Assembly (NCBI GenBank): GCA_973895155.1 | Contig: OZ316892.1 | Coordinates: forward strand, 30,076,932-30,140,931 | Source of the DNA: Marsupella aquatica | Taxonomy: Eukaryota > Plantae > Marchantiophyta | Length of the DNA stretch: 64,000 bases | Direction of reading: 5' to 3' | Part shown: positions 2,738-42,547 of the stretch, in pieces | Layout: every line of letters starts with the position of its first letter | Position numbering within the stretch: position 1 is the stretch's first letter | Notes under the pieces: model-generated | Database searches by the model: none | The model's input: only the letters and a program-made list of their open reading frames with translations | Told to the model about the DNA's origin: nothing | Translations under genes and position numbers: made by a program

Positions 2738-3942
2738 ATGCCCGACTACTGTTTGACGAATTGAAAACTCGAGACCTATCACATGGACTACCACGATAGG
2801 AACATATGCAGAAAGTGGTCGTGGTGTGGAAGCATATCGAGTGTTTTGCCGGGAATGCAGTAAGTTATATGAGCGTCCTAAATGCAAATGCAAGCGCAAG
2901 GGCTTTGGAGTGGGTGAAGGAGGTTCATGGGCATGCTAGCAAAGCGGAACTGGAGTCGGAGTTGCGTGTGGGCAATGCAGTGGTTCACATGTATTGAATA
3001 CTGGCAGTACAGATGATGCGGGACGAGTTTTTGACGTAATGGAGAAACATTTATTCACACGGACTGCAATGATTGGTGGACTTTCACAACATGGATGTGG
3101 GCATGAAGCCCTGGAACTCTTTAAAAAAAATGAACGTGGGCTTGTGAAGCCCGACGGGACTATATTCGTGGAAGTGTTGTCTGCCTGTTGCCGTGGAGGC
3201 CTTCTTTATGACGGCCGTGGAGTCTTTTCAGCTATGACGCAAGATTATGGCATCGAGCCTGATATTGTGCACTATAATTTCGTGGCGAATCTTCTTGGGT
3301 GGGCTGGACACTTGGAGGAAGCAACGCTCTTAATTAGTGACATGCCAATTGAACCAGATGTAGTAACTTGGACATCCTTGCTCGGGGCTTGTAGAACTGA
3401 CGGTAATATGAAGACCAGGCCGCTAACAAGCTTTTCCTCTACATATGTGCTTCGCTCCAGCATCTATCCTGCAGCTGGCAATTGGGAGGAGATTTCATTG
3501 GTGCACACTATCATGCAACAGGGAGCTGTTCAGAAGGAGCTGGATTGAAGTTGAAAGCAAGATCCATAACTTTGTTGTAGGGGATGTATCACACCCAGAA
3601 GCGAAGGCGATCTATACTGAGCTGAAGAAATTTACTGGAAAACTGAAAACTGAAAGCGGAAAGCTACATTCCTGACACCCAGCTTGGGCTGCAGAATGTC
3701 GAGGAGGTGGATAAGGAACTAGCTGTTTGTTGTCATAGTGAGAAGTTGGCTATTACTTACGGACGTCTGCCCATACCTCCGGGGAATCCTATTCGTTTAG
3801 ACAATAACCTTCGGATGTGTTCAGATTGCCATACAGCAACCAAGTTTATCTCAAGGTGACAGGACACGAGATTATAGCGAGGGATGCAAGTCGCTTTCAC
3901 TATTTCACAGGTGGCGTGTGTTCTTGTGGTGATTACTGGTGA
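2738..3942 (+). pseudogene. Degenerate PLS-DYW PPR pseudogene
   Basis: PPR, E and DYW pieces lie in several frames (ORFs 2806..2997, 2994..3548, 3445..3675) with stops and deletions. It ends ...TCTTGTGGTGATTACTGGTGA (CGDYW*), followed by a 3' flank shared with the other paralogs. Confidence 0.9.
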
Positions 3943-5902: not shown

Positions 5903-8900
5903 ATGTGGAAAACAGAGAGAGCAGGTCCATTTAGGGGAGTGTGGAGGAGAGCGATTCCTATCAGTGAAGTGATGAAACGAAGCAGAATCATTCTGCCGGA
6001 ATTGGGGCCGCCGGTGCACGTTCTGCCACAGCAGCAGGCCCCGCACCTCTCCTCTGCCTCCACCTCTTGCTCCACCATCCTCTCTTCCCACCTCCAGCCC
6101 TGTGGACGGGATCGCAAGAATTCGTCGCATATCATCGGGTTGCTCTTAAGGTCAACAATTAATTTTTGTTCATTGTTGTTTCGTTTCTGTTCTTCTTGAA
6201 GTGAATACACATTACTTTCTGCTTGTTGGGTTTGTCGTTTGGATTTCATTTCTCATTCCTCTGTGGATATACTCGGATCTATTTAGTCCCTCACTTAACG
6301 TTATTCACCGGGAGATACTCTAAATGGGTTTGACAGCGGCAACTAAGGTTCAATAGCTTAGCTTGGGTCCTGTGAATTCAATGGAGGAGTGCTTCCCTTC
6401 GCTTCCCTTCCCTTCCCTTCCCTTCCCTTCCCTTCCCTTCCCATGCAAAATGGCTCCAATGCCACTTTCCTTAGTCGTTTCTGTTATATCGTGGAGCATT
6501 GCCCACCCGTTCCATCGTTTTAACTTGGAAACTGTAATTTTTCATTTTTTCCAGGCATCAGCGACAGCGGGTGCTTCTCTTGGAAAATTACCTACAATAT
6601 GGAAGTTTTGCTGTAAAGCATTTCGCATCGTCTTTTCTTGGAGATGCCACATTGGAACAGCAGAGCCTGTGGACGAAGGAAAACATTAAGGACGCATTCA
6701 ACTTGAATCCCACCAGGGAACAAAAGAGATGTGCGCATGTACAGTCGTTCAATGGACCGTTTGACGAATCTCATCGACCCACAGAGAATTATCCCTCTCT
6801 AGTCACCCAGCTCTGCACTGCACTTGAGCCTCAATTCCGTTCCGCGAACATGGATCAGAGCAAGATCCGTCACTTGAATGCTCCTGGGAATTTGGACCAA
6901 AGTACTTCATCATCAGCGCTCGAAGTTATCCAGCGGGATTCGAAAGCAAATTCTAATTCAGGACCCATAGTCAGCTGTATGGACATGCATAGAGCGGGGA
7001 CCACGAGTGAAGCAATTGTTTTGTTGCAGAATCGTCTACAACGAGGCAGTACGATAGACTCGTCCACATTTGTTAAAGTTCTGCAAATGTGCTCGAAAAA
7101 GAGAGACCTTTTAGCGGCCAAGCAGGTTCATGTCTTCATCGTCCAGAGTGGAATGGATACAGACCTATACGTGGCTAACACCCTCCTGCATGTGTACATT
7201 AGTTGCGGGGAAATTTTGAATGCACGGCGAGTTTTTGACAAACTTGAGAAGAAGAGTGTTATTACTTGGAACGCGATGATAACAGGATATGCTAGGAGTG
7301 ATGATGCTGAATCCGCACTTGAACTTTTCCAACTAATGCGCCAAGATGGTGCAAGGCCTAATGAGGTCACATATCTGTGCATCCTGAAGGCATGTTCGAG
7401 CCCATTAGCTCTAACATCAGTAAAACAAGTTCACGAGTGTATTCAGCATGCAGGCTTTGAATCAGATGTGCGTGTAGGGACTGCCCTCCTTCAGGCGTAT
7501 GCAAAGTGTGGGTGCATCAGGGAGGCAAGGCGAGTTTTTGAAAGATTGACTAATCGAAATATTGTCACATGGACCCTAATGATTGGAGCATATGCAGAAA
7601 GTGGGCATGGTGGGGAAGCATATCGACTGTTTCTCGCAATGCGACGGGAAGGCTTCAAACCAAATGCAATCACTTACGTGAGCATCCTGAATGCATCTGC
7701 AAGTTCGGGGGCTTTGAAGTGGGTAAAGGAGGTTCACCGCCATGCTAGAAAAGCGGGACTGGAGTTGGATTTGCGTGTCCGCAATGCACTCGTTCACATG
7801 TATGCAAAGAGTGGGAGTATAGATGACGCCCGACTTGTTTTTGACAGAATGGAACAACGCGATGTAACCACATGGACCGTAATGATCGGTGGACTTGCAC
7901 AACATGGATGTGGGCATGAAGCATATCGATTGTTTCTCCAAATGCGACGGGAAGGCTTCGAACCAGATGCATTCACCTATGCTAGTATTCTCAATGCATC
8001 TGCAAGTGCGGGGGCTTTGGAGTGGGGGAAGGAGGTTCATGACCAAGCTAGCGAAGCGGGACTGGAGTCGGATTTGCATGTGGGCACTGCACTGGTTCGC
8101 ATGTATGCACAGAGTGGCAGTATAAATGATGCCCGATTAGTTTTCGAAAGAATGGAGAAACGTAATGTAGTCACATGGACTACCATGATCGGCGGACTTG
8201 CACACCATGGATTTAGGCATGAAGCCCTGGCACTCTTCAGAAAAATGAATACGGACCGTGTGAAGCCCAATGGGACTACATTCGTGGCAGTTCTGTCAGC
8301 TTGTTGTCATGGAGGCCTTCTTGATGACGGTCGTAGACTCTTTTCAGCTATGATGCAAGATTATGGAATCGAGCCTGACATTGTGCATTATACGTGCATG
8401 GTGGATCTTCTTGGGCGGGCGGGACACTTGGAGGAAGCAAAGCGATTCATTAGTGACATGCCAGTTGAACCAGATGTAGTAACTTGGACAGCCTTGCTTG
8501 GTGCTTGTAGGACTTACGGTAATGTGGAGTTGGGCGAACTTGCCGCTAACGAGCTTTTCAGGTTAGAACCCAGTAAGGCCTCTACACACGTGCTTCTCTC
8601 CAACTTATATGCAGCAGCTGGCAAATGGGAGAAGGTTTCCTTGGTGCGCACTATGATGCAAAAGAGAGGTGTTTGGAAGGAGCCAGGGCGTAGCTGGATT
8701 GAAGTCGATAACAAGGTCCATGAATTTGTTGTCGGGGATATGTCCCACCCAGAAGCGAAGGCGATATATGCTGAGCTCAATAAATTGACTGAAAAACTGA
8801 AGGCTGAAGGCTACATTGCGGATACACGGCTTGTGTTGCATGATATTAATGAGGAAAACGCTCTTTGCTCTCATAGTGAGAGGTTGGCAATTGCTTACGG

Positions 8901-9081
8901 ACTGATGCACATACCTCGGGGAGAGCCAATTCGTGTAAGGAAGAACCTTCGGGTGTGTCCAGATTGCCATACAGCAACCAAGTTTATCACTAAGGTGACA
9001 GGACGCGAGATTATAGCGAGGGATACAAATCGCTTTCATCATTTTAAAGACGGCGTATGTTCTTGTGGTGATTACTGGTGA
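5903..9081 (+). CDS. PLS-class PPR-DYW RNA editing factor; predicted exon 1 5903..6138 (or ..6150), exon 2 6555..9081
   Basis: ORF 6571..9081 has L-S, three PLS triplets, P2L2S2, E, PG box, HSER, CPDCH and DYW. The acceptor ttttttccag at 6554 needs a phase-2 donor. The ATG-led R/S-rich ORF at 5903 (transit-peptide-like) offers phase-2 donors at 6138/6139 and 6150/6151. Exon 1 is inferred. Confidence 0.9.
6393..6442. repeat. (CCCTT)n microsatellite in the predicted PPR intron
   Basis: Direct pentanucleotide repeat. Confidence 0.9.
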
Positions 9082-10623
9082 CCGGATTGAAAGCAGTGTT
9101 GCGCGGCTGGAAAAGTTACTGTGCACGTTTAACTAGACAAGAAAATGTGTTATGGCAGAGTGGCAGAGTGGTAGTCCGTAAGGGGAGGCAAGTTCCGCGA
9201 TTAGGAGCTCTGACTGTCGCATGAAGCATCTACGACAACCCCCACCCCTACCCGATTGATAAAGGCTACCTGCTCTTTGCGGGCTCCTTATCGAAAGCGT
9301 ATCATCCCGGTCTTTGCCCACATCATGAACGAGGCATGACAACAGACCTACCAATGGAACCATGGCGTAGAGTGGAGGGCTTCACCCTAAAGTTGAGCCT
9401 CCCAAGTACCACTAGTCGTTGGTCCCGCACTCTTCAAAACCACCAACTTTTGACACAACCATGGAAAGTCGAGAGTGAGGCCTTCTAGCACATAATCATG
9501 CCCTCCATCTGATGAGGGACAGTAACCAAAAGGGTCTGGGGTCCAAAAGTGCTACTCACATGGATTACTCCCTGACTCTCACCCTGGGAACTATCCATCT
9601 AACTGCGGGACAACCGGTCCAACCTTGACTGAACAATCTATGGAATTAGGAACCACTATATTGGATCAGTCCATCAGTACATTGATTGAGAACACAGAAC
9701 GCTCCTCTGTATGTATTTCTTCACTTCCTGTTCCACAAGTTTGGAGAGATACTTCTTTGTCAAACAGTAAAAGACCTATTCCGTGAGCACGGTCTTTCTC
9801 CCTCTAGTTAACGTTTGACACAATCAAGACCAGAATGAAAGGCGAACTGGATCCCTGTAGACCAACTGTGGTGACAAGATGTTGGATCTTAGAATTGGTT
9901 GAGTTTATTTCACAAAATGTACAAAACAGTATATAGCGCTTCACGCATGTTGTACAATGGTACATGAACTGGTTCTATAACTACTTACAAAAAGTTCAGC
10001 TGAATCCCCGAGAAGCCGAAACTGGGAGGAACACACCCAGTCTATTTTCAAGTGGACTGCTCCCATCCCAATTGCTTTGCAATAGGTCCGCTTCCACTAT
10101 CCAGATGTGAGCACTTGCCAATGGGTTTCCGTAAAACGTATGATCGGTTTGCTTCTTTCTATACAACAAAATGTGTAATCTTTATAAAATGATTTGTAAC
10201 TATCATCCACCTTGTTGCGCGCCAAATTGGTAGGCTTCAGGTGGGGAAAATCGAATTTCATTCCTCATGCCACCGAATAAATAGTGACGAAGAAACCTCT
10301 GAAAAACTGGAAATTGACGTTTTAGAGGACCGTTCCGCTCGTGTTCATCTCCCCATAGCAGGCCTTCAAATAACAGAACCCGCAAATGGAAGACCACAAT
10401 GGTGCAAGAGAGAGAATAAGGACCCAACAACTTGGCTTGCGATTCTACATGTGACACTTCCTCGAGTTCTTGGCACCATCTGGGCTCTCAAGAGATCCAA
10501 AATCCAGGAGCAGTTGAAGCTGTGAATCAGGCTACAAAAAAATGCTGGCTGTGAACGTTTCCGCCTGTGTGAGGAACCCAACAGATGTAGAGCAGCTCAA
10601 ACATACATCGCATTTGATTTCTG

Positions 10624-13600
10624 TCATAAAGATGGAGTGTCATAAAGGTGGTGTGTTTTGATGTAGTGTATGACACTGTCTGCTGTCAAGTACTTGATTG
10701 ATAACCCTCTCCCCAAATTTCGTCTGCAGTAGAGTGGAGAAATGAGTGCGCCACGACTAAGATTTGGAAACCATCAACAGACTCGACTACAACCGAACCT
10801 AACAGAGGAACATCGTCACTGACTGTCAAATGAGACATGATTCAAATATTTACACTCAAATTAGTAATTTCCATCTTGGTCCGGGTGATGGCACAGCACA
10901 CACCCACCAGCGATTACTGGAGCCCAAGCCATTAGTCCTGAGCTGGACCAGATGTCACTTGTTGTAATCAGTATGTTTTCCACGACACTTCGTCATATTT
11001 ATGTAATCAAAATACAAATGAATGGATATATTTAGATAATTACTTACGGACAAATGTTGACCACTAGATTTTTAAAGGTGTACTATACTGAGAAGGGACA
11101 CATTAAGAGCCACACGGATAGAGTCACAGCTAAGTGACACTTCGAAACACACCTTCTGATGTGACCCACCTACCCACAAGCAATCTCCTACAGCTAGAAA
11201 AACAGAAATTATTCATTAGTGAAAATTCGCATGATCTTTATTTGGATGGACCAGTTCGGGTTACAGACTGCCGGGCAAGAGAATTGGGTTTACCTTAGCT
11301 TGGTTGAGCTGATCTCATTTGTTATGTGCTCCTCGACAACAACTATATTTTTCTGCGGTGTAACAACAAAAAGTTCAGCAATAGAAGGAGCTGCAAAAAC
11401 GAATATCCAGGGCCACAATTTGACCTACTGTATTTCTTCGGTTCAGCAATTGCACCCTTCTTATAAATGTACAAGGACCTTGACTAGAAGTAGTAACACG
11501 AAGGTCCTCTTTCACAACAGATTATAAAGGAACACATCAACTAACATCAATCGTCTCGACGGAAAGCTTACTCTGTATTCATACAGGACATCATTTTCAA
11601 ATACAAGCTTCCGTAGATCCTTTCCTTCTCTTGGAATGCAAACAACCCCATGATCATGGAATATAGATTGTATCTGCACCAACGACAAAGTGACATGTCA
11701 AGAAACATCCAGAGGCAATAGGCTCCACCGAGTCCTTCAAAGGCAACAGACACTGCACCCCAACAAGCGCCGCACGATTGTTGGACTTGCAACCACTGCT
11801 AGATCACCAAAAGATGAATATACAGATGTCGACCATTGCTTAGCCAACAGCTCCTGCATTGATCTAGTTTTACCACCTTGATAAAATCAATTCACAGAAT
11901 CACATGTTACTAAAATATCAAGCCCGCATCTGATCCAGGGCTTTACTTCAACTCCTTGCTACGCCTAAATATTGAGACACAATTAATTCTTAGAACTATG
12001 GCTGTTCTGTGTAAATCGAGGACCAACGCTATGGAAGGCAAACTATTTCCGGCCCACGTACCTCTCCCCATAAAAGAGCGTAGATAATAGTTTGCATTCA
12101 ACAACTTAAAATCGAGGTTCAGGAATACCAAGAGGTCATAGGAAAGTACCTGCTCAGGAATCCAAACGCCAGGGGCAGTAAATGATTCCAGAAGATCTGC
12201 ACCACATAACAGCATCACTCGAACTTTTTCTGCAATCATTTCAAGCACAGCCCACAAGTGATCAGCAAGACAGTTGTCAACCCTGCGTACTTCAAATTCC
12301 CCCTGATCATAGAACGCTGAGCATGCACGCAAAAATGGGCTCAGAATACTGTCGGAGCTATTGACAACACACTGGCATGAGTGAAGTGGTATTCGATTGA
12401 AGATACAGATTCACTTAAGTATTGATCAAAACTAGAAGGGGGAAGTTCTCACCATCATTTGCAAAGCCATGAGAGTTGACTGCATGATCCACCCGGCCCA
12501 GCACAGTGAGGGTGCGCTGATAAGTAACCTGCTTCGCCTACTTCACCCATCCCATTAACCCAACTCACCTCAGCAATTTTATTTGTCCCTAAAAGTTACT
12601 ATCTTGTTTCCTAGAAATAGAATAGAAGGGCAAATAGAATAGCATTGAGTTTCCCAAAAAAGAGCTCATAGCACACGAAGTGACTGAATTACAACACTTA
12701 TTGCATCATACAATCGCAAACCATATCCAATTTGTCCAGGAAGAATCAGGTTTTTATTTTCACTATATTTTCAATTTCTATATGTACACATATATATTGT
12801 GAGCTGGGGGATAGGGAGGGTCGGCACACGCACCTCCCAAGGATCAACCATGATGAATGATGAATCACTGGTCGCCATCTGGCATAACGTGATCCGGTGC
12901 TCTGCGGGAGCCAAACCCTTGGCCAGAAATCAACACATCAGGAACATTGCCAATAGCGCAACAGCAATTTTCCATGGAAATACCAGAGAAGTTTTTTAGC
13001 TGTGCATCAAGAGTACCATCTTGCCCAGCAAGCCATCCAAAACGTTACTGTTGCCTGTCACTGACAATGAACTGTCTTATCTAGGTCCAAATGTGAACAT
13101 TCTCATTCTACCCGCAAATCTAACCGGCACTTAACTGTTCTATAAAAGGTAAGGAAAGGGCATCAACATCGACCACGTCCAAAAATTGGACAAACGAATG
13201 GAATAATTTTGTCACTAACTGACCGACAGCTCTCTGCAGATACCTAGCTACTGAGAACTATTGAGAACACATAAGCGCTTGAGATCACCTTCTTGCCATA
13301 GGAATCGTTTACAGGAGACATGTACCCTCCAAGTACATCGTATCCTTCGCCAACGAGAGCATCTCGTGCAATTTCTTAAGAGGCAGGTAAACAATAAGCC
13401 ACTGTTCCTTAGTAACACTCATAAGCATCAAACGTGTACTGCGATCTTTTGGTGTGCAAAATGACATCCAAGAGGTGCATTTGACTGTTGAAAATCTGGT
13501 TGAATCACTTAAGATGGATTTCGTGGACGAATTATGACAGTCCAATTGAAGGTAGACATGTGATGCGCAAATTGACATGAATCGAAGCGATATTAATTCG

Positions 13601-14460
13601 TTGTAGATGTTGCAACCAAGGGATTCTCCAGTTCAGCTTCTAACCCACATGAGAAATCTACTACCAGGAGAAGACGGAAACTTGGAGAGTAAACCACTAA
13701 GTGTAATTGTTTGTCTCTTCTGAGTTCCTGAATCGCAGTCTTGTTCATTTCAGCTGATTGTCACCATTAACCAATCTATATGGACCTTACATTTCACTCA
13801 TGACCCGGGCTGTGCAATCAAGCCAACCATTTAGGTTTCATTTGTCACAATGACCATTTCTAATCAGACGCCTCAAGTGGAAGATCACCCAAACATGTCG
13901 TGAACGGAATGATTTCAATCAATTCCACGCGAACGATGAACAAGATATCAAAAGCAAGATAACATACCAAACATGCGTAAATGCATGTAAGTAGGTGGAT
14001 TGAAACTGCCTGTGGCAACCAAGACAACTCGCAAGCGCTTTCTACACCACAGAGTATATAAACATACGTTTAAGTGTCAGAGTCGAGATGCAAAGTGCTC
14101 TATTTAGGCGTGATGAAACGCTTCTTCAATTTCTCAAATTTGGGGTTTCTTCCCACTTATTAGCTTTCTTTGGAAACCCTCGTGTGTACTAACTGTTATT
14201 TACCAAGCAACATGATTTGGAAAAGCTATAAGGCTACAGACAACAGGATTTCGTAGAAATGTACAGTAGCAATTTTTTCATGTGAACACGAGATATATCA
14301 TCAGAAAAATACACAGGGGATGATTACTTATCAAAGACTATCATGGGAACCAGGGGGGGAAACAACTCTTGTTCAATAAAAGTTGAGGACTGAACTTACT
14401 GCTGATGCAAGACATCCACAGAGGCGAGTTTGTCCATTGGCAAGGGGACATCGACAATTC
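10624..14460 (-). CDS. NMNAT: Nicotinamide/nicotinate mononucleotide adenylyltransferase catalytic part (exons 2-10 of the fusion model)
   Basis: Complete plant-type NMNAT with the T/HxxH motif (TYMH) and the ISSTxxR motif; nine exons in phase. Confidence 0.95.
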
Positions 14461-16534
14461 CTGCTAGCCGCGCCAGAACAGAACCACATTGACCATACCA
14501 GAAAGTCAAAAAATGTCGATGAGAGAGGAGAGGTGACTCATTCATGCGAATATTGGATGGAACCAACACGAGCATGACAGTATGTAATCAGGCAGTGAGG
14601 TAATAATTTAACGGACAAAAATAAATAAAATTGCAGAAGAGAGCCTTAGAAGAAACGATCGAAAATAGAACTAGACAAAATACTGTCAACGATTAGGGTA
14701 TTCGAATTCACGAAGATACGCTTGGGCGGTGGTGATGAAACATGTGATCAAAGAAAGTCTAAATAGCAGGCAATTGACTTCAAAAAAAATACTAAGCCTT
14801 AGAGACCTAAGAGAAGGACTCCGTAAGAAAATCTGAGCAGGAGAAGGGATAATCGTATAGAGAGCGGCAGAAAGAAGAATGCTCTAAATGAAGACAATAA
14901 CTTACAAGAAGGGAACTGTCAATCCCTACGAGGAGGGGGCCACCTAGACAAGAGAAAAAATAAAATCTGCGGGACTGCCCAGTTCTGTCAATCGTACCAG
15001 AAGTGACCTCGCTGCCACCAGAACCACCATTGCCAGAACCTACTAGCAAGGGAGGCCGGTCCGTGCCTTCATGCTGAGTCCACCCACGGACTCTCCTCGC
15101 TGCAGTCCTATCGCCCAAGAACTCGGCCATAGCCTCGTACAACTGAACGCGAAAGGTGGCCGGGAGCTCCTTAGCCTTGGTCTTCTCCTTCTTCGAGACC
15201 TCGTCCAAATCCCAGTAGTTGGGCCTGCCCACCTTTTTATTCCAGTCCGCTATCTGCTTGAAGGCAGTGGACAAATTGGACCATTTCCTCTCAATCTCCT
15301 TCGGCTGCCGGTCGACTCCCAGGGGCAACAACAAGTTACGGACTTCCTTCCACTTCTCATTCGCTGACTTGAAGACATGCTTGCCTTTCTTCCCGGCCAC
15401 TGCTAACTTCATGTGGATCTGTCTATAAGCACTGACCAGTGCATCCATCTCTGCATCTTGCCATAACTCAGCTCTCTTCTTCTTGCCGATGGCGTCCTTA
15501 TCTCCCTTGTCTCTGCTATCTCCATCTCGGCCCTCAGCATCACCCTCGTCGCCTAAATCCCCATCCACCCCTGCTGCTCCTCCGCAGCTGCCCCCTCCAC
15601 CATCTCCTATGTCTCCTCCTCCTCCCGCAATGCCCACTGCCTCTACTCCATCTGCTCCCACAACTCCTCTCACCACGCCTACGACCACTCCGCCAACGCC
15701 CACTGTTGAGTCCCCACAACCGTCTATCATCCCTGCAACGGCCGACCCTTCCCCTGCAACATTGAGCCCTCTAGTAGAGACCCCCACACCCCGATAGGTC
15801 CCGAGTCCACTATTCGAACCTACAGCAAACGACCCCACAACCTCCACATCTTTCCTATCTGCTCCCGTCTCCATTTCTTTGATTCCGCTGCTGCTGATGT
15901 TGTTGGTGTTGTTGTGGTCTGTAGAGAGGGACCTCTCCACACCTCCTCCTTCCTCGTCATGCCACCAGCCCCCTCTCTTCGTCTTTTTGCTGCTCCTCTC
16001 ATCAGTGCTGCTGCTCCCTCCCCCGTCCCCACCCTTGGCAAAAGCTCCACCCGCTCCTCCACTCAAGGTAGAACCATCTCCTCCGCCCCCACGACGATGA
16101 AATTCATCAGCAACAGCAACAGGATGGGCATGACCACCGTCAGCCTCAATCTTGGGAGGGAGAGAGTCCCTATCTCTGGAAAAAGTCTCGTCCGAGTAAT
16201 TCACTACTCCCACGCCATCGGCTGAGAAAGGGTCTCTTCCGAAAGAGTCGCTGACATAGTTGCTCTCCTTAGGGTATCCTTCAGAGGAGTAGGATTGCCT
16301 TTCCCTGCTGTTGCTTCTGTTACCCAATGCGGTGCCTCCACCGCCGAAGCCTTCGCGCACGTACGAGGGGTCCGGGTACGGGGCAAGCGAGGGAGAGACG
16401 TGGGGATGATGTGGAGGAGGCTGAGGATGCTCCACTGATTGATTGGTATTGGTATTGGTATTGGAAAGAGCGTTCACATTGTGTGTTGCAAAACCAGGGT
16501 GCTCAATGGGCGAGGGATTCGACGGCTGCTCCAT
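10624..16534 (-). CDS. NMNAT: Predicted trihelix (Myb/SANT-like) DNA-binding domain-NMNAT fusion, 10 exons, 755 aa: 16534-14998, 14460-14400, 14041-13968, 13374-13289, 12917-12834, 12537-12453, 12229-12150, 11673-11572, 11352-11294, 10723-10624
   Basis: All nine introns are GT-AG with consistent phases (1,2,1,0,0,1,0,0,2), total 2268 nt. NMNAT motifs: VDVPLPMDKL, LVATGSFNPPTYMHLRMFE, GGYMSPVND, HRITLC, VDPWE, YQRTLTVL, LLCGADLLESF, GVW, ISSTKLR, LSIKYLT..VIHYIKTHHLY. Confidence 0.85.
15117..15485 (-). other. Trihelix / Myb-SANT-like DNA-binding domain (resembles the SH4/ASR3 clade) within exon 1
   Basis: KKKRAELWQDAEMDALV..KWKEVRNLL..GVDRQPKEIERKWSNLSTAFKQIADW..NYWDL..LPATF..LYEAM shows the three spaced Trp residues plus the YW...LP..F extension, preceded by a basic NLS-like patch. 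Confidence 0.8.
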
Positions 16535-18586
16535 GAGAATCGTCTTGGCTGAGAGGCGGTTTTCCTCTACTCCCTCAGCTTACTCTGCCCTAGCCTGTCT
16601 CCCAATTCTTGCAGCAGCAGCAGCAGCCTACAAGTGCTAGTTGAGTGCAGAATTCACTTGATCGATAAGCGTAAATCGAAAGATTTCCTTAGAGCAGCGA
16701 TTGGCTTAGAAGAAGAGGCAGAGTCAGCAGCAGCATTGGAGCTCGCTGCAAGCTTGGTCACATCCATCGAAGGAGCGAACGTCACTCGGCCCTTATACCA
16801 TTCACCATTCCTTCTTCGTTTCTTCTTCTTCCTCTTCTTCGTCTTCGTCCTCTTTTTCTTCAACACAGCAGTAACAGAATCTTACTACACTTTCTCCAAC
16901 CGCTACGACTACTGAATCTCCTTTTCAACTCGCTCCTCGGCCGCCGCACAACAGCTGTTGAATCCACTTTTCTAAAAATGCGCATTTCCTCCTCACATGC
17001 GGCCATGGTATGCTTCTCCAACGAGACCCTACAGCTGCTGCTCCTGCTGCTGTTTCTATTATGATCGTACCACAAAAATAACACCACCACCTATCCAGAC
17101 CGTCGTCATCGGAGAAACTAATCCTCAACTCTTTCTTCTGCGCGTTGATTGTTATTGCCGGCCTTCCTGATGACGATGATGGTCAATTCAGCAACCTGAT
17201 TACATATTGCCGATGTCCCGATCAGCAACGGGACAAGAGCCTGCTTGCTACTGTTGTAGACCTAGTAACCAAGCATCTGCTGCGTGCTATACGGTACATC
17301 ACAAGCAGGCAGGCAAGACGACTAAAATTCCTCCGTCGTCTTGCAAGCAAACTCCCACTCACCGCAGCGAGCTACAGTCGTGCTGCAATCTTCTTCGTTC
17401 GTCCTCTGGAGGACACTCTTTCCACAAACTTGCTCACCTCGGTCTCTCTCAAACCGCAAGGAGGACTCGAGTGATGGATAATTCATTCTTTGATTCGTTC
17501 GAAAATCGAACATCCTTTCTCACAAAGGCAGCAAGCGACGAGCGGGAACTGCAACCCGTAGAGAGCGATTCAAACCAAAACCCGAACCAGTTTCAACCCA
17601 ACGAAGTGAACGAACGCTCCTTCTGTCCCTTCACAGGAAACTCTGAGGTGGACTGAAAAGATAGTTATACAACTACAGAATGATGCAGCAGAACGACAGA
17701 AATTGTACTGAAGACGGGACGCTATGGCTAAAGAAAGGAGGCAAAGTCCTCTCCAAAACACAGAGAAAGACACGAGTCAACCAGGACGACGAGCGAAAGA
17801 CACCTTTCTTTCCTTACTGGCGTGTTGTATTATTCACCGGGAAAAGAAAATACAGTACAGAAGAAAATCGCATGATTTGTACGTCAGGTAGCAAGAAAGG
17901 AGGAGAGCACAGAGGGGACAGGAACTCTTCTTCCCCTTCGTTCACCCCACATCTTTCCGGAGTCAGACCTTCTCCTTGACTGATCTTTCCTTCCTGCCCC
18001 AGCTGCCACCCTGCCGCTCCACGGACGTTCCTTCCTTCTCCTGTCTTACGTCCTGCGCAATCGATCAGCTTCCGATTACAATCCCCCCGTTGACCTGTGT
18101 GTATCAGATCACGGCCAATTCCTCCAGGCTAAGAAGTTTCGAGCTCCAAAATCGTCCCCGGTAATAACAATACGGCCATTTCCACCAGGGCAAGAACATT
18201 TTGTGCTTCCAGATCGTCCCCGGCGAAGGCACATCAGTATTGCGGATGATGGATGCTGCGCGACGAAATCTTCTGCCTGCTTGTTCTTGCACCACATCAA
18301 AGAGTCTCGACGAGCGGATGAAAGAGGCCGGAAGAATCCCGGTGTTGGAAAGAAACGCCGGCCAAGCAAAAAGCCGGGCGAAAAGATGTGCGCAAACCTT
18401 GGAAAGATACGGAAAGATAGTGAATGCAAGAAAGATGCGGCGGACATTGGGGCCATGGCTTTAGCAGCTTCGATCGTCGGCTCGGCCCCCGGTCCCAGCG
18501 TGGCAATAATTATGTTCGTTGCTCTTTGGGGCCGCACGCATCCATTATTTGATACTTTCCTTGTTACAAATTAAATAGTGTCTCCT

Positions 18587-25977: not shown

Positions 25978-28900
25978 ATGGAACTTGAAGCACGAGGATC
26001 ACCGCGGAGGTTTCAGGGGCAGAGAGAGGAGCAGGAGGAAGAGCACGTGACACTGATACCATCACCGGTGCGGCGTGTGGTGGAGGAAGTAGTACTACTA
26101 CCGTAGCTCACGGTAGTGCCAAAGAAGAAGATGGGGACTTTCAAGCTTGGGGGACCCAAGTATGAAGTGACAAAGTATGATGGGCGCTCTGACTGCTTGC
26201 TATGGGAGAAGCAGGTGAAGGGAGTGCTTTATGCGTCAGGGATGGGCCAACTGCTGAGCCCTCGTGAAGACGATGTTGATGAGAAACAATGGGACCGCAT
26301 GCAGGAGCAGGGAGTGTGGTGTGTTACACTCTATCTCATGCCTCCCATCATCAAGCAGTTGGGTGCACATAAGGATTGCATGTCCTTGTTTGCGGAATTG
26401 CAGAGCAAGTATCACGGCAAGGAGTTATCGAACCGGCTTTACACTTCCTACAAACTGATGAGTTTCAGGATGAAGGAATCTGGTACGAAGTTGCAAGACC
26501 ATGTGGATGCTTTCAACGACATGGTCGTTGACTTGGAAAACCTTGGGGAGACTTTGAATGATGAGACGAAGGCTCTGCAGCTTCTTAGTTCATTGCCTCC
26601 ATCTTACCAGTCCCTATCACGAGTGTTGTTGCATCGTGATAGGGATACCATTTCATACAATGACGTGGTAAGTTCTCTGCTTAGTGATGATCTTCAGCAG
26701 AAGATGCACATCACGTCACAGCCTTCATCATCTGGTGCTGCCCTCAATGTTAACCGTGGGAGGAGTATGCAGCGACCAACTGGGGACCGTAAAACCCAGT
26801 TTAGATCTAAATCCAGATCTAAATCCAAGGGTAAATCCCCTCAGAGGAGGCAGGTGACATGTTGGAAGTGCAACCAAGTTGGACACTTCAAGTGAGACTG
26901 TAAGGGAAAGGCAGCGGAAACTTCATCGGCAAATGTGGCTAGGGCTGATGGAGAAGCTGATTTACTCAATGATGAGTATGTTTTATGAAGTCGGGGGTAT
27001 GCCCTGTGCACGTCATCTAGGAGAGCAGATGATGTGTGGATTCTTGATTATGCTTGCTCTTTTCATATTTGTTACATTCGTGAGTTTTTCAGTTCTTACT
27101 CTGTTTCAAACGGTTTAGTTCTGATGGGAAATGATCACTCCTGTCAAATTGAGGGAATTGGGTCTGTGAAGATTCAAATGTTTGATGGCGCTGTGCGCAC
27201 AGTGTCCGGAGTCAGGTATGTACCTGGCATGCGTAAGAATCTGATTTCACTCGGTGTGTTAGATTCAAATGGTCATCAATGGAGCGTTATTGATGGTGAA
27301 CTTCAAGTCAGGTCGGGAGAGACAGTGATTTTGAAGGGGAGTAGACAAAAGAATTTGTATGTGTTACAGGGTAATACTGTATGTGGAGAGGCCAATGTAA
27401 CCAAGTCTCACGAGGAGATGACTCAACTGTGGCATTCACGGCTAGGCCACATGAGTGAGAAGGGTTTGGCTATCTTACGGAAGAATGGACTCATTTTTGA
27501 TTTGCAATCTTGTAAATTAGAGTTTTGTGAGCATTGCATTCTTGGAAAGCAGCATCGTCGTGCTTTTGGTGTTGGAACTCATCGTTCCAAAGCGGTTCTT
27601 GAGTACATACATAGTGACGTGTGGGGTCCATCCCCGACTCCCTCACACTCTGGAAAGTTGTACTATGTATCATTTATTGATGATTACTCAAGATTTGTGT
27701 GGATTTATTTCATGACGCATAAGTCTGATGTCTTGTCCATTTTTAAGAAGTGGAAGGCCCAGGTGGAGAATCAGACTGGAAACACGATCAAGTGTTTGGA
27801 TACAAGGGTGAAGAGTCTGAGGTCAGACAACGGCGGGGAGTACACTTCAATAGAATTTGAAGAGTACTGTTCAGAATAGGGGATAACTCGCCATCTCACC
27901 ACAGTTTATATTCTGCAGCAGAATGGTGTCGCTGAGAGGCTCAATCGGACACTGTTGGAGCGGTCACGGAGTATGTTGAGCCAATCAGGTTTACCACAAG
28001 AATTTTGGGCAGAAGCTGTCAATACCGCAGCTTATTTGGTAAATCTTTCTCCTTCTAGTGCTATCAATTTCAAAACGCCGTTTGAGATGCGCTATAAGCG
28101 GCAAACAGACTATCATGGCTTGGTAGTTTTTGGAAGTGATTCATATGCTCTCACACCGAAGCAGAATAGGACCAAGTTGGATCCTACCTCCAGGAAATGT
28201 GTTTTTCTTGGGTACCAGAGTGGTGTGAAAGCCTATAGGCTATGGGATCCTATTGCCTGTAAGCTCGTTGTCAGTAGGGATGTTTCCTTCAATGAATCCA
28301 GATTATTGAAGGAGGGGGAGAATACTCAGGTCTCCCGTACTGACAAAGGAAAATCTCCTATCCCGGATCTCGTTGAGGGGGAGATTGGTTATGAGGTGCA
28401 TGACCGGAGAGAAGGAGTTGCTCCAATTATGGAGCTGGTTCCTGTGCCAGAGGAACCAGAGGAGTTTGTTGATGCTGGTGAGCAGAGTGGATGCTGTTGA
28501 GCTTCAAATTGTACCAGCACACGCAGATCAACCGGAGTCATCGGCTAGAAGAACATCTGGTCGCACTATACGCGCTCCACCAAGGTATGGACAGTGGGTT
28601 GATTCATCTCAACTACAAAAGGATGATTTTACAGCTCATGATGAGGGTGATGCGTTAATTTTGGAAGAAGGGGAACCTTCTTCATTTCATGAGGCAAGTG
28701 CTTCAAAGGAGAAGCAGAAGTGGACTACAGCAATGCAAACGGAGATGCAGTCACTAAAGGACAACAAAACTTGGGAGCTTGTTAAGCTGCCTAAGGGTCA
28801 GCAAGTGGTGGACAGCAAGTGGATTTACAAGCTGAAGGATAATTCCATAGGAGGTGGATCGAAGGTCTACAAGGCTAGGTTGGTAGCAAAGGGATTCACA

Positions 28901-30259
28901 CAAGAGAAAGGTGTGGATTACAATGAGGTCTTCTCACCAGTTGCTAAGTACTCTACAATACGACTATTGTGTGTACTTGTTGTAATGTTTGGTCTGCTGC
29001 TAGATCAGATGGATGTTGTCACAGCTTTCCTCTATGGCACATTGGAAGAGGTGATCTTCATGAGACAACCGCTAGGTTTTGTGAAGAGAGGACAGGAGGA
29101 ATTGGTTTGCAGATTGCTTAAATCCTTGTATGGGTTGAAGCAGTCACCAAGACAGTGAAACAAGCGGTTTGACGATTGGATTCAGTCACAAGGTTTTCAC
29201 AGAAGTGTATTTGACCCTTGTGTGTATTTGAAATCGGTAAAGAATATTGTATTTGGGTTCATTGTTTTAGTACTTTATGTGGATGATATGCTAATTGCAG
29301 CCAAGGATAGGTCTGAGATTGTTAAGCTCAAGGCACTGCTTAGTGCAGAGTTTAAGATGAAGGACTTAGGGCCAGCTAAGAGGATTTTGGGTATGGAGAT
29401 CACTAGGGACTTGGAGGCTGGCAAGCTATGGTTGACGCAGAGCAGTTATGCGAGGAAGGTAATTGCAAGGTTCAACATGGGGAATAGCAAGCCAGTAAGT
29501 ACCCCGTTGGCTCCACACTTCAAGTTATCATCAGCGTTCTGTCCTACGGATGACACAGAGAAGGGGTTGATGTCAAAGGTTCCGTATGACAAGGCAGTGG
29601 GGAGTCTCATGTATTTGATGACTTGCACTAGACCTGATCTTGCCATGGCTATGGGCAAGGTAAGCAGGTACATGTCAAATCCAGGGAAGGTACACTGGGA
29701 AGCAGTGAAGTGGATTATCAGGTACTTGAAGGGTACCGTGGATCATGGTCTTTTATTTGATGCGAATGCAAAGAATGCTAAATCATTGATTGGCTATGTT
29801 GATTCTGACTATGGACAAGATTTGGACCGAAGGAGATCAACAACAGGATACGTGTTCACACTTGGCGGTGGATGCATAAGTTGGAGGTCTACTTTGCAGA
29901 AGTGTATTGCTCAGTCTACTACAGAAGCGGAGTATGTTGCAGCTGCGGAAGCAGCAAAGGAAGCGATTTGGTTGGATAGACTTATCACTGAAATGGGATT
30001 GCCACAGGGAAATGTGAAGCTCCATTGTGATAGTCAAAGTGTGCTCCACCTTGCTATGAACCAGGTGATGGACAGCAGAGTGAAGCACATTGATGTCAGG
30101 TACCATTTTATCAGGCAGGCTGTGTCTGATAATTTGTTTGAGCTAGTCAAGATTGATGGTAAACTCAACCCGGCTGACGCATTTACCAAAGTGATTCCTT
30201 TGGAGAGTTTCTCTAGACACCGTGACGTATTGCAGGTTTTGCAATTGCATCACAAGTAG
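25978..30259 (+). pseudogene. Copia gag-pol polyprotein with in-frame stops and one frameshift
   Basis: Gag with CWKCNQVGHFK*DC knuckle, protease WILDYACSFH, LWHSRLGH/CEHC, integrase HSDVWG, LRSDNGGEY, QQNGVAER, RT YKARLVAKG, SLYGLKQSPRQ*, LYVDDML, RNase H KHIDVRYH/NPADAFTK. Stops at ~26104, 26893, 26986, 27877 and 29156; frameshift near 28490. Confidence 0.93.
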
Positions 30260-39700: not shown

Positions 39701-42547
39701 TAGAGGCGAGGAATGCAGACAAAGCAGCATGGGAAGCCATGCACAAGAGAGAGTTGGCGCTCTCGCCAGTTGTACAGGAAGTGGAGCCAGAGTTAGTAGA
39801 GTAGGGAACTGGTAATCAGCCCAGTCTTATTTTAAGTTTCTTTGAGTGATGCACATACTTATGGCTATGGAGAATACTCAGGACCTTATCGTGCAGTCAG
39901 ATCTCTTCTCTTCCCTCACCTCAATTGGATTAGCGGCCCAACTGCTTTGAAGAAACTGTTGGCAATCAATCCCCATTCGAATCGCAATTGGGAATAGCAC
40001 AGTTCAGCTCACCTTAGCTGGGCTCAGTTCAGCTGAATTCCAAGTGAAGATCAAGGTCTGTGCGAGTAAATTCGAGTGACAGATCAGGTTTAACAGTGCC
40101 GCTTCTCAGTGCTCCTCCTCCTCGCACCAAGATCTCTACATGAATTGAAGGAGATCTCCGCTGGCTGTCCCGATCCCGGGCTGTCGCAAGCTGAGAATGC
40201 TTGTAGAAATCACAATTCTGATAAGAATTACCCTCGTAGCACATTATTTTACGTCGCTTTAGTTGCTTCTCGGGGAGCCGGTACCGAGCTGTGTGTAGCT
40301 GCATGCTGACGAATCCAGTGATCCCTCTTAAGCTCGCGTACCACTTTCACACGGCCGCTGGCGATATCCGTTGGGCAGAGAATTCCTAGGAAGGCCCTAG
40401 CTATACTCGATGTTCCTCTGTGTTTCAACCCTACATTGCTGGGCAACAATACTTCTCAACTCTTAGTGCCCAAGGAAGCGGGACAGAATCTCTTTTTCAG
40501 CCCGGGATATTTTTTCATCTCCCCATCCTGGTTCAAGTCCTGCTCAGTTCTTGGATGACGTCACCTGCTGCCTGCAATTATGTGCATTTGCCTTTCTTTT
40601 CAGACATGACAAACTTGGAAGGAATATCTTCATTTATGAGCTTCTTTTATTGCCCATCACAGCCTAAATCAATTTGGTTTCCACTTGCTTCAACGTCTTG
40701 TTCTGAAAAATTGTCGAGCCTGCCACTTTGCTTCTTACACGCTCTGCATATCACTTCTTGACAAGTTCTTCTTTGTAGAAATGTCCTCAATTTGTCGTTT
40801 GGTATGCAGGACAATTCGGTTGGAAAGGGTTCTTTATTGGAGGCGATTAACTAGAGCACTTGCGCCAAAGTTTTTCAGAAAGTAATGTGCAGGTATGACG
40901 GTGGTTGCTTTGGGGTTTGAAAGGAAGAGGTTCTCATACTTTTTACTCTCAAAACTTGTAGTTTTGATTGTCAAGTTTGAATGTCAAAGCTGGAATCATT
41001 CTTAAAAGAGTACAGCAATTCATAATTCTTAATGCAGGAGGAAGTGATCCTGGAGAAGATGCTGCTACTGATATGCTTCTAGGGAATCCTCCAACTGTTA
41101 CGTTGAGCTGAGAATCCTCTGCGCGGGCAAGGTTTTCCCAACAAAGCCCTCTCCTACTTGATTTTCTCTCTTCAGTCCAAGGGTAGGAAGTATGAGACTT
41201 GAAGTTTGAGGGCTCTGCAAGATTGCGCTACTTAGACTGATTTGAACGTTTGTCAAACAGTTAAGATCATATTTCTCACAACTGTAGCTTTAAGCTCTCT
41301 ATTTCCGGCACGGGGACGTATCTGCCTCCATGGAAATTTTGGATATGGGCCGCTTTAGGCAACACTCCACAGCCAGGTATGATTAATTTTGTATGCATGT
41401 CATTTTGTTGGATTATGATGTGATCGAACAACCTTGAATGAATTCTTAACAAAGGCGTTTGATTTGCAACGTTTGATTTGCAACGTTTGATTTGCAGGGT
41501 TCATCCTTCATCTTCCGGTTTGATTGGTATTGGCATCAGCCGTTGTTCTTGTACAAGGCCTTCAGGTAATGAGACTCAAGAGCGATTTCAACGTTTTGCG
41601 TACCTACTTTTAAAGAAAACTCTTTTTCCAGCACCACGGTGTGACATTTATAGTTGCGTGAATTTCCTGCTATGAGGCTTATGTGAGGAAGACTTGACTT
41701 GAACTTCCAGTGTGATACTTTTTCCATCTCCAAGGAAGCACAGGGAGCGGGGGCGGGGGCCGCCGTCACATTTATGTCATATGTGTCTCTCGACGGATTC
41801 TATAAGAGACGATATAAAGAATGCTGGATAGGCTTTAGTTCTGAATTGTTGGAGAGGGACGAGTAGCGCTTTCACATTCATGTCATCTTTGTCTAATCAC
41901 AATGGATTCACTAGAGTCAATCTATGGACACTTGCTAGGCTTTATTTCTGAATTATAGTCTCTTTCCAAAAACCTGATTATCGGCTTTGTGTATAGCATA
42001 GAAAGGACAGTCTAGGGAACGTACAAATTAACGCCTGTCAAGGTGCCCTAAGAGTCTACCCTACACACAACCCAAGGATAACATGTGACTGCTGGCTGAA
42101 GTTTTTTAGTGCCAATTCGATAGGCTCTTGACTGTATTCTGTCTACGGTTACAATGAAATACGGGAGTGCGAACGAGCTTATTGATACTTGAGCTACCTG
42201 GATATGCCTTTCACAATTAATTCAGTATTCTTTTCTAAGATCATCGCATTCTTGACAGATAGCGGTTACTCTCAGTTGAGAAGGAGTCATATAACTTTTG
42301 CAAGTTATCTGTACCAAAGATCACAGCAGAGCAAGGGAGACAAGAAAAAAAATCCTTGGACGGAGGTAGGAATGCACCCTAGAACTCCAGAGACTTACCG
42401 GTCTGCTGTGTATTTCTGAGCATTCATTGAAGAAAATTCATTGGGAAACATAGTCCTCAGGAAACAACTACAAAGTCGCTGCACCTCGTGGAATCTCTTG
42501 GATTTTAACCTCGTACCAGATCTGATCGTGGGTTGTGGTGCTGACAG

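Follow-up and report, generated by a model that had tools for sequence, protein, structure and literature searches.

A trihelix domain fused to a nicotinamide mononucleotide adenylyltransferase in Marsupella aquatica and across non-flowering land plants

On the minus strand of a 64,000-nucleotide stretch of the genome of the liverwort Marsupella aquatica (contig OZ316892.1, positions 30,076,932 to 30,140,931; hereafter the window), a single ten-exon gene joins a trihelix (Myb/SANT-like, GT-1-like) domain to a complete nicotinamide mononucleotide adenylyltransferase (NMNAT). The two parts are confirmed to share one reading frame, and a contig from a close relative is spliced across their junction. 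The fusion is real and ancient, apparently undescribed and, judging from the sequences compared, looks ancestral for land plants.

Gene structure and splicing

The open reading frame (ORF) listing of the window contains a minus-strand frame of 575 amino acids (aa) at 16534..14807, which includes exon 1 of the fusion gene (14998..16534). This exon encodes about 340 aa of a Gly-rich, acidic and predicted disordered N-terminus, followed by the trihelix and the start of a linker, and ends in a phase-1 donor (14998/14997), past which the T content of the frame rises from 19% to 39%. Intron 1, the fusion junction (14461..14997), is a GT-AG intron of 537 nt with 40% T, and its acceptor (14461/14460) requires phase 1. 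Exon 2 (14400..14460) matches the N-terminus of stand-alone angiosperm NMNATs, has Val where these begin with Met and contains an internal ATG at 14437. The remaining coding exons, also on the minus strand, complete the NMNAT: exon 3 (13968..14041) carries the signature GSFNPPT..H (aa 544-553), exon 7 (12150..12229) the CGxDL motif (aa 651) and the conserved Trp665, and exon 9 (11294..11352) the SST motif (aa 718-720), whereas exons 4 (13289..13374), 5 (12834..12917), 6 (12453..12537) and 8 (11572..11673) follow from the gene model and the coding part of exon 10 (10624..10723) ends in TGA. Joined together, the ten exons give 755 aa and a stop codon with no internal stop, and 9/9 introns are GT-AG. 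The original prediction, made from the letters of the window, had claimed this 575-aa frame with its trihelix, the phase-1 donor followed by T-rich sequence, the acceptor of matching phase, ten exons without a stop, intact catalytic motifs and Val at the angiosperm start position, all of which held.

Of five sequencing runs listed as matching the window, none is recorded as RNA. One of them, X1, comes from a close relative and not from M. aquatica itself, and its RNA nature is a guess of the index (share 0.07); its joints coincide with intron ends. A 370-nt X1 contig (depth 139) consists of 15232-15000, exon 2 and exon 3, with joints 14461^15000 (one letter between) and 14041^14400, so that exons 1, 2 and 3 are connected across the predicted junction 14998^14460 and intron 1 is skipped. 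In its exon 1 part, six of the seven listed differences from the window are synonymous. Other joints among those listed fall at the ends of introns 4, 5, 6, 7 and 9 (12916^13288, 12536^12833, 12230^12455, 11673^12150 and 10723^11294, respectively). Next to no X1 coverage falls on intron 1, which is not evidence against a promoter there. Besides X1, 23 listed fused proteins of 520-552 aa, from two clusters that group with gymnosperms (15 of 38 and 12 of 12 members listed), are encoded on 282 contigs, the longest of 2.0-2.7 kb; contigs of this size with an unbroken frame for a ten-exon gene are most simply explained as spliced cDNA.

In a second X1 contig (depth 52), 15000 is connected to 14040; its middle is unresolved, and both its ends differ from the 370-nt contig. 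It may represent a frameshifting skip of exon 2 that would end the protein at 558 aa, or a diverged homoeologue with an unaligned exon 2. A true skip would suit a locus giving two independent products, a trihelix-only one by exon-2 skipping or intron read-through and an enzyme-only one by internal start or cleavage, the fused form having no function of its own. Trihelix-only RefSeq models of a second Cryptomeria paralogue, Diphasiastrum models starting in the linker and the Met that 13 of 20 fused proteins have close to the beginning of exon 2 point the same way. Nevertheless, we consider such uncoupled cohabitation very unlikely: the depth-52 contig may be the homoeologue, the other 7 of the 20 proteins have no Met near the exon-2 start, fused frames of cDNA size are abundant, and no angiosperm orthologue of the trihelix was found in our searches (see below), as if a detached trihelix were useless.

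The trihelix domain and its N-terminal extension

The trihelix occupies aa 350-476 (15107..15487, minus strand), as delimited by Pfam, an alignment with Arabidopsis GT-1, a structure model and fold matches. Pfam assigns Myb_DNA-bind_4 (PF13837) to aa 358-438 (E 1.1e-9, 39 bits, cut-off 27), and the GT-1 alignment is weak (E 0.06). The domain combines three Trp-bearing helices, a family-specific segment of 15 residues between YW and LP, and a fourth amphipathic helix, and its charge is net basic (28 K/R vs 18 D/E). In the predicted structure, three helices are followed by two C-terminal ones, and the best fold matches, with middling scores, are Sap1 (Z 8.2, root-mean-square deviation (rmsd) 4.2, 94 residues aligned), NgTRF1 (7.2, 3.8, 83) and GT-1 (2jmw; 7.1, 4.1, 79). 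These top three are sequence-specific DNA binders, and SANT domains are among the weaker matches; GT-1 2jmw is also the best match in Foldseek. The fusion and Arabidopsis GT-1 (2jmw, 2ebi) have in common the KKRAExW start, the three Trp helices and KWxNL in helix 3, but their identity is only 24-31%, further residues of helix 3 differ, and an enzyme takes the place of the usual C-terminal coiled coil in the fusion. The residues KKKR (aa 351-354), previously described as resembling a nuclear localisation signal, are present but overlap the KKRAExW start and therefore belong at least partly to the N-terminal arm of the trihelix domain itself.

A C-terminal coiled-coil region for oligomerisation is common, though not universal, in trihelix factors. 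The model of the orthologue from Calypogeia fissa has no helix between residue 485 and the NMNAT domain, and on this model the fusion contains a trihelix domain but is not classed with the canonical trihelix factors. The fourth helix of such factors follows the pattern (F/Y)(F/Y)xx(L/I/M)xx(L/I/M) (PMC4195496); the fusion retains this hydrophobic pattern, although position 1 is L/M/V and position 8 is mostly F. The 15-residue YW-to-LP spacing sets the family apart, being found in 22/22 members checked and in 0/79 other trihelix domains scored, 73 of which have 11 residues instead.

Conservation is higher in the trihelix than in the enzyme. Among 17 proteins, 52 of 127 trihelix positions are invariant, including an unbroken helix 3 (K424-L433), against 43 of 222 enzyme positions; without three incomplete or diverged models the figures become 57/127 and 63/217. 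Identity to the M. aquatica protein is higher for the trihelix than for the NMNAT in 17/17 fused relatives (97/78% in Marchantia, 81-86/63-68% in Physcomitrium, 78/67% in Cryptomeria), and the three Trp and helix 4 are kept in 20/20 fused proteins tested. The closest named protein, that of the leafy liverwort C. fissa, is identical at 87% of the N-terminus, 100% of the trihelix and 93% of the enzyme. Most of residues 1-367 of its model have pLDDT <50. Within this disordered N-terminus, a WW-[HNQ]-[DE] motif stands behind a basic patch (Trp-Trp at aa 190-191, 15962..15967 on the minus strand, position read from the sequence) and recurs in 12/20 fused proteins tested, from both bryophytes and gymnosperms. 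A Pfam TRAF6_Z2 match on a 23-aa test piece lay below the cut-off and was discarded as spurious.

The NMNAT domain and the linker

Eukaryote-type NMNATs are characterised by the motifs GxFxPx(T/H)xxH and CGxDL, a conserved Trp and SST..R. All of them are present in the fusion, as checked against alignments with the Arabidopsis (9rpk) and human (1kqn) enzymes. The NMNAT part matches 9rpk with E 5e-82 in phmmer, and the C. fissa model of this domain superimposes on 9rpk with a TM score of 0.95 and an rmsd of 1.4 A, so that it has the nucleotidyltransferase fold. Motifs and fold are those of an adenylyltransferase, as in the earlier label of NAD+ synthase, but NAD+ as the product needs care, since the Arabidopsis enzyme prefers nicotinic acid mononucleotide (NaMN), which yields nicotinic acid adenine dinucleotide (NaAD) (PMC12178909).

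In the C. fissa model, the trihelix and the NMNAT domain are predicted with confidence, whereas the N-terminal region and the linker between the two domains are disordered. The linker measures 64-90 aa between fixed motifs, and its variable length and predicted disorder suit a tether. The relative position of the domains is not fixed in the full-length model (pTM 0.49), and a predicted trihelix-NMNAT complex (score 0.00, alignment not used) speaks neither for nor against contact between them.

Distribution across plants and algae

A search with the trihelix region returned 34 proteins, 17 of which carry both PF13837 and PF01467. These belong to Calypogeia, Marchantia, Riccia, Physcomitrium (four), Sphagnum (two), Taxus, Cryptomeria, Ginkgo (two) and four other records. 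The 17 lacking PF01467 include a distant trihelix and several proteins that stop close to the donor of exon 1; some trihelix-only matches share a cluster with a full fusion. Cluster look-ups added three full fusions, namely Marchantia polymorpha MARPO_0011s0011, whose database name is only ‘nicotinamide mononucleotide adenylyltransferase’, a Selaginella protein (RefSeq, 489 aa) and a record of 523 aa. The architecture has thus been annotated independently in nine named genera (Calypogeia, Marchantia, Riccia, Physcomitrium, Sphagnum, Selaginella, Ginkgo, Taxus and Cryptomeria) and, far from being specific to one lineage as first supposed, is common to liverworts, mosses, a lycophyte and gymnosperms. 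It is hardly credible that gene prediction has simply joined two adjacent genes. The 16 close trihelix-search matches that lack PF01467 and the reading of the ORF past the donor to 14807 could be taken in this sense, but several trihelix-only matches end just past the exon-1 donor or cluster with full fusions, and the X1 contig spliced over the junction, the annotations in nine genera and the unbroken frames on cDNA-size contigs largely refute an annotation artefact.

A profile search of 1.84 billion representatives retrieved 13 at E <= 1e-30, separated from the rest by a gap from 3e-37 to 5e-24, and the named ones among them are bryophyte, lycophyte or gymnosperm. The search also retrieved a model from the alga Spirogloea muscicola that starts with the second half of a trihelix, continues into an NMNAT (E 1.9e-6) and has the 15-residue YW-to-LP spacing; this one partial gene model points to an origin of the fusion in the algal sister group of land plants. 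A 681-aa cluster mate of the Spirogloea protein proved to be an ADH-NMNAT chimeric model without the trihelix piece. A local trihelix profile found the domain in 0/193 other NMNATs, including those of Klebsormidium, Mesostigma, Mesotaenium and Closterium and the long forms of angiosperms. No named fern or hornwort protein turned up in any search, which is no evidence that these groups lack the fusion.

A second type of paralogue is shared by Sphagnum and Ginkgo (support 94/92 in one tree, unresolved in the tree with outgroups), a hint that the fused gene was duplicated before mosses and seed plants diverged. Its members in Sphagnum, Ginkgo and Cryptomeria (P0031, P0032, P0156, P0157) have a short N-terminus and drifted catalytic motifs, and the RefSeq models of the Cryptomeria copy are trihelix-only; a pseudo-enzyme or a secondary split is possible. 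Other deviant models occur elsewhere. Those of Diphasiastrum (P0035, P0321-P0324) begin within the linker, without a trihelix, at two loci, reflecting either incomplete annotation or an independent loss in clubmosses. In Picea sitchensis P0019, the trihelix and the first NMNAT exons are followed by hAT-transposase dimerisation sequence (PF05699), probably because of an exon derived from a transposon or a chimeric cDNA. A stand-alone NMNAT of 397 aa (P0075) with a transit-peptide-like N-terminus, placed among algal rows in the tree, is a candidate organelle-targeted enzyme.

Absence from flowering plants

None of our searches found an angiosperm fusion, and neither the trihelix-region search nor the profile search found an angiosperm orthologue of the trihelix, although a trihelix-only form shorter than 281 aa could have escaped them. 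Among long NMNATs, a trihelix is present in 16 of 83 and in none of the six angiosperm rows. Among the best 120 of 435 short NMNAT matches, 97 of the 99 named rows are angiosperm, the other two being Klebsormidium and Diphasiastrum (starting in the linker), with no stand-alone NMNAT of a named bryophyte or gymnosperm. In trees of the enzyme domain, angiosperms (100/100) group with fused gymnosperm enzymes (100/99; 100/100 with outgroups), and all other members of the land-plant clade that holds both (98/92) are fused, except for the Diphasiastrum model. At the position where angiosperm NMNATs start, 7/7 gymnosperm-type proteins of the main paralogue have Met and liverworts Val. As angiosperm NMNATs group with fused gymnosperm enzymes that already bear Met at the angiosperm start, exon 1 was likely lost in flowering plants, whose enzyme would start at this internal Met; this is the simplest reading of the sequences.

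A possible chromatin tether

Along the lines of the original prediction, we propose that the trihelix holds a catalytically active NMNAT on nuclear DNA, where NAD+ or NaAD would be formed locally, a proposal for which we see roughly even chances. Its starting point is a single reading frame, shown to be spliced in a close relative and found conserved in non-flowering land plants. The enzyme is very probably active, given signature motifs and a modelled fold matching those of the Arabidopsis and human enzymes. The trihelix would bind DNA through its invariant third helix and its fourth helix, and the NMNAT, replacing the C-terminal coiled coil of ordinary trihelix factors, would supply oligomerisation. 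More speculatively, the product might feed a nuclear PARP or sirtuin at the bound sites. Mammalian NMNAT-1 is recruited to chromatin by PARP-1 (PMC5322727, PMC13515651), a recruitment that the tether would hard-wire. Flowering plants would then have dispensed with it by losing exon 1 and starting at the internal Met already found in gymnosperms.

Several considerations weigh against this proposal. Since NAD+ can cross nuclear pores by diffusion, the gain from a fixed tether may be small, and angiosperms manage without the fusion. Fold scores of the trihelix alone are middling (Foldseek E 0.31; VIA Z 7-8), and the location, DNA binding and activity of the fusion are predictions from sequences and models. 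As to the enzyme tree, a clade of fused proteins only was rejected by the approximately unbiased (AU) test with Spirogloea (p 0.014) but not without it (p 0.074), the tested group having been named after the first tree was seen. The GT-1 domain of plant RNase J is conserved although the protein acts in the chloroplast, with no role shown for the domain (PMC7154860), so a conserved trihelix need not bind nuclear DNA. Finally, given the preference of the Arabidopsis enzyme for NaMN, it may be NaAD that is made locally, and NaAD still needs an NAD synthetase that has been placed in the cytosol (PMC12178909).

The trihelix might alternatively serve as an adaptor for localisation or for protein or RNA binding, acting in nuclear import or docking on PARP, a sirtuin or a chromatin complex and giving a nuclear NMNAT similar to NMNAT-1 with no chosen DNA sites. 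SANT-type Myb domains bind proteins, and SANT is among the weaker fold matches; the nearly invariant 15-residue segment after helix 3, absent in 79/79 other trihelix domains, may be a partner surface. The GT-1 domain of RNase J has likewise been proposed to bind RNA or proteins (PMC7154860). We nonetheless find this role rather improbable, as the domain is basic, keeps the basic N-terminal arm, the three Trp and helix 4 of the DNA-binding GT-1, and has sequence-specific DNA binders as its top three fold matches.

A sensor is another alternative, which we likewise find rather improbable. The protein would be a transcription factor whose NMNAT domain binds NAD+, NaAD or ATP and, through its oligomeric state, switches DNA binding or the repression of NAD-pathway or stress genes on and off. 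The model for such a device is Salmonella NadR, which joins a helix-turn-helix (HTH) domain to an NMNAT and, once NAD+ has bound, represses genes of NAD biosynthesis (PMC8027369). The N-terminus of the fusion, which is long, acidic and disordered and bears the WW motif (12/20), resembles a cofactor-recruiting region, and Ginkgo P0031 and Physcomitrium P0025 have drifted catalytic motifs but keep the trihelix. By contrast, the long, variable and predicted disordered linker is unlike a fixed allosteric path. Moreover, all catalytic motifs are retained in most copies, and the best 120 of 435 short matches include no stand-alone NMNAT from a bryophyte or gymnosperm, so that the fusion is probably needed as a working enzyme.

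Returning to the tether, a bolder version of it would make the ancestral land-plant NMNAT a sequence-specific chromatin factor since the time of the algal sisters. The trihelix would read a fixed motif, and NAD+ or NaAD would be made or sensed at chosen loci, as a eukaryotic counterpart of NadR and a hard-wired form of the promoter NAD+ microdomains of mammals, until flowering plants dropped it together with exon 1. We advance this version only tentatively and with more doubt than belief.

Transcript ends and genomic neighbourhood

Upstream of the coding region, a 2165-nt X1 contig over 16089-17605 and beyond indicates a likely long 5' leader of at least 1.07 kb (16535..17605, minus strand) with 14 upstream ATGs. 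Up to 17900 there are 15, with ORFs of 63, 48 and 37 aa at 17513, 17006 and 16767. Such a leader may point to translational control. Downstream, a 741-nt X1 contig (depth 281) on 10002-10678 indicates a likely 3' untranslated region (UTR) of at least 620 nt (10002..10623, minus strand), the contigs themselves giving no strand.

The plus strand of the window has three intronless PPR-E-DYW frames and one PPR fragment (90-2537, 2940-3548, 6850-9081 and 42545-45127), which from their sequence would be RNA-editing factors of organelles, in keeping with a liverwort that edits RNA. The frame at 6850-9081 is convergent with the fusion gene, and its stop lies less than 1 kb from the likely 3' UTR. A Copia-type long terminal repeat (LTR) retrotransposon with gag, integrase and reverse transcriptase, split into several frames, lies at 26107-30259 on the plus strand.

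Relation to known proteins and significance

Both domains are already known, as are trihelix-enzyme chimeras in two plant cases and a DNA-binding domain on an NMNAT in one bacterial case. Arabidopsis NaMNAT/NMNAT (9rpk, 9rpm) and human NMNAT1/3 (1kqn, 1nup) have the same orthologous catalytic domain and motifs but, unlike the fusion, are stand-alone enzymes, and mammalian NMNAT-1 reaches chromatin by binding PARP-1 and not by a DNA-binding domain of its own (PMC5322727). The two plant chimeras are RNase J (At5g63420), a metallo-beta-lactamase with a GT-1 domain, and a trihelix/amino-acid-kinase protein (aspartate/glutamate/uridylate kinase). They likewise combine a trihelix with an enzyme, are conserved in land plants and have a trihelix whose role is given as unknown (PMC7154860, PMC4195496, PMC10755193), but their enzymes are different ones and both persist in angiosperms, where the NMNAT fusion was not found. 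RNase J also has its trihelix at the C-terminus and is chloroplastic, whereas in the fusion the trihelix is N-terminal to the enzyme. Salmonella NadR (HTH, NMNAT and nicotinamide riboside kinase) similarly has a DNA-binding domain and an NMN adenylyltransferase in one chain (PMC8027369). The resemblance is convergent, with a bacterial HTH and an extra kinase domain in NadR, where Pfam finds only Myb_DNA-bind and CTP_transf_like in the fusion orthologues, and NAD-dependent repression has been shown for NadR only.

Databases already display both Pfam domains on fused proteins, named NMNAT or uncharacterised. In agreement with the original prediction, which knew of no description, we found no paper joining a trihelix with an NMNAT (mononucleotide adenylyltransferase) and none on Physcomitrium NMNAT, subscription journals, supplements and the wordings ‘CTP_transf’ and ‘cytidylyltransferase’ being outside the scope. 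Title listings contained none on the fusion or structure 9rpk. The words searched brought up no mention of the fusion in the main texts of two NAD/NMNAT reviews, a survey of Marchantia factors and a study of trihelix evolution that includes moss and Selaginella; the family tables in the supplements of PMC4195496, outside this scope, may list these genes with their second domain.

Accounts of plant NAD biology draw on Arabidopsis, which has a single, small NMNAT and for whose nucleus evidence of NAD+ recycling is not yet available according to a 2025 review (PMC12178909). In liverworts, mosses, Selaginella and gymnosperms, the orthologue bears a domain of DNA-binding type whose conservation exceeds that of the enzyme itself, so that flowering plants probably show the derived condition. 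The gene is present in Marchantia (MARPO_0011s0011) and Physcomitrium, both of which are readily edited, and this makes both local NAD+ synthesis on plant chromatin and the role of enzyme-fused trihelix domains testable.

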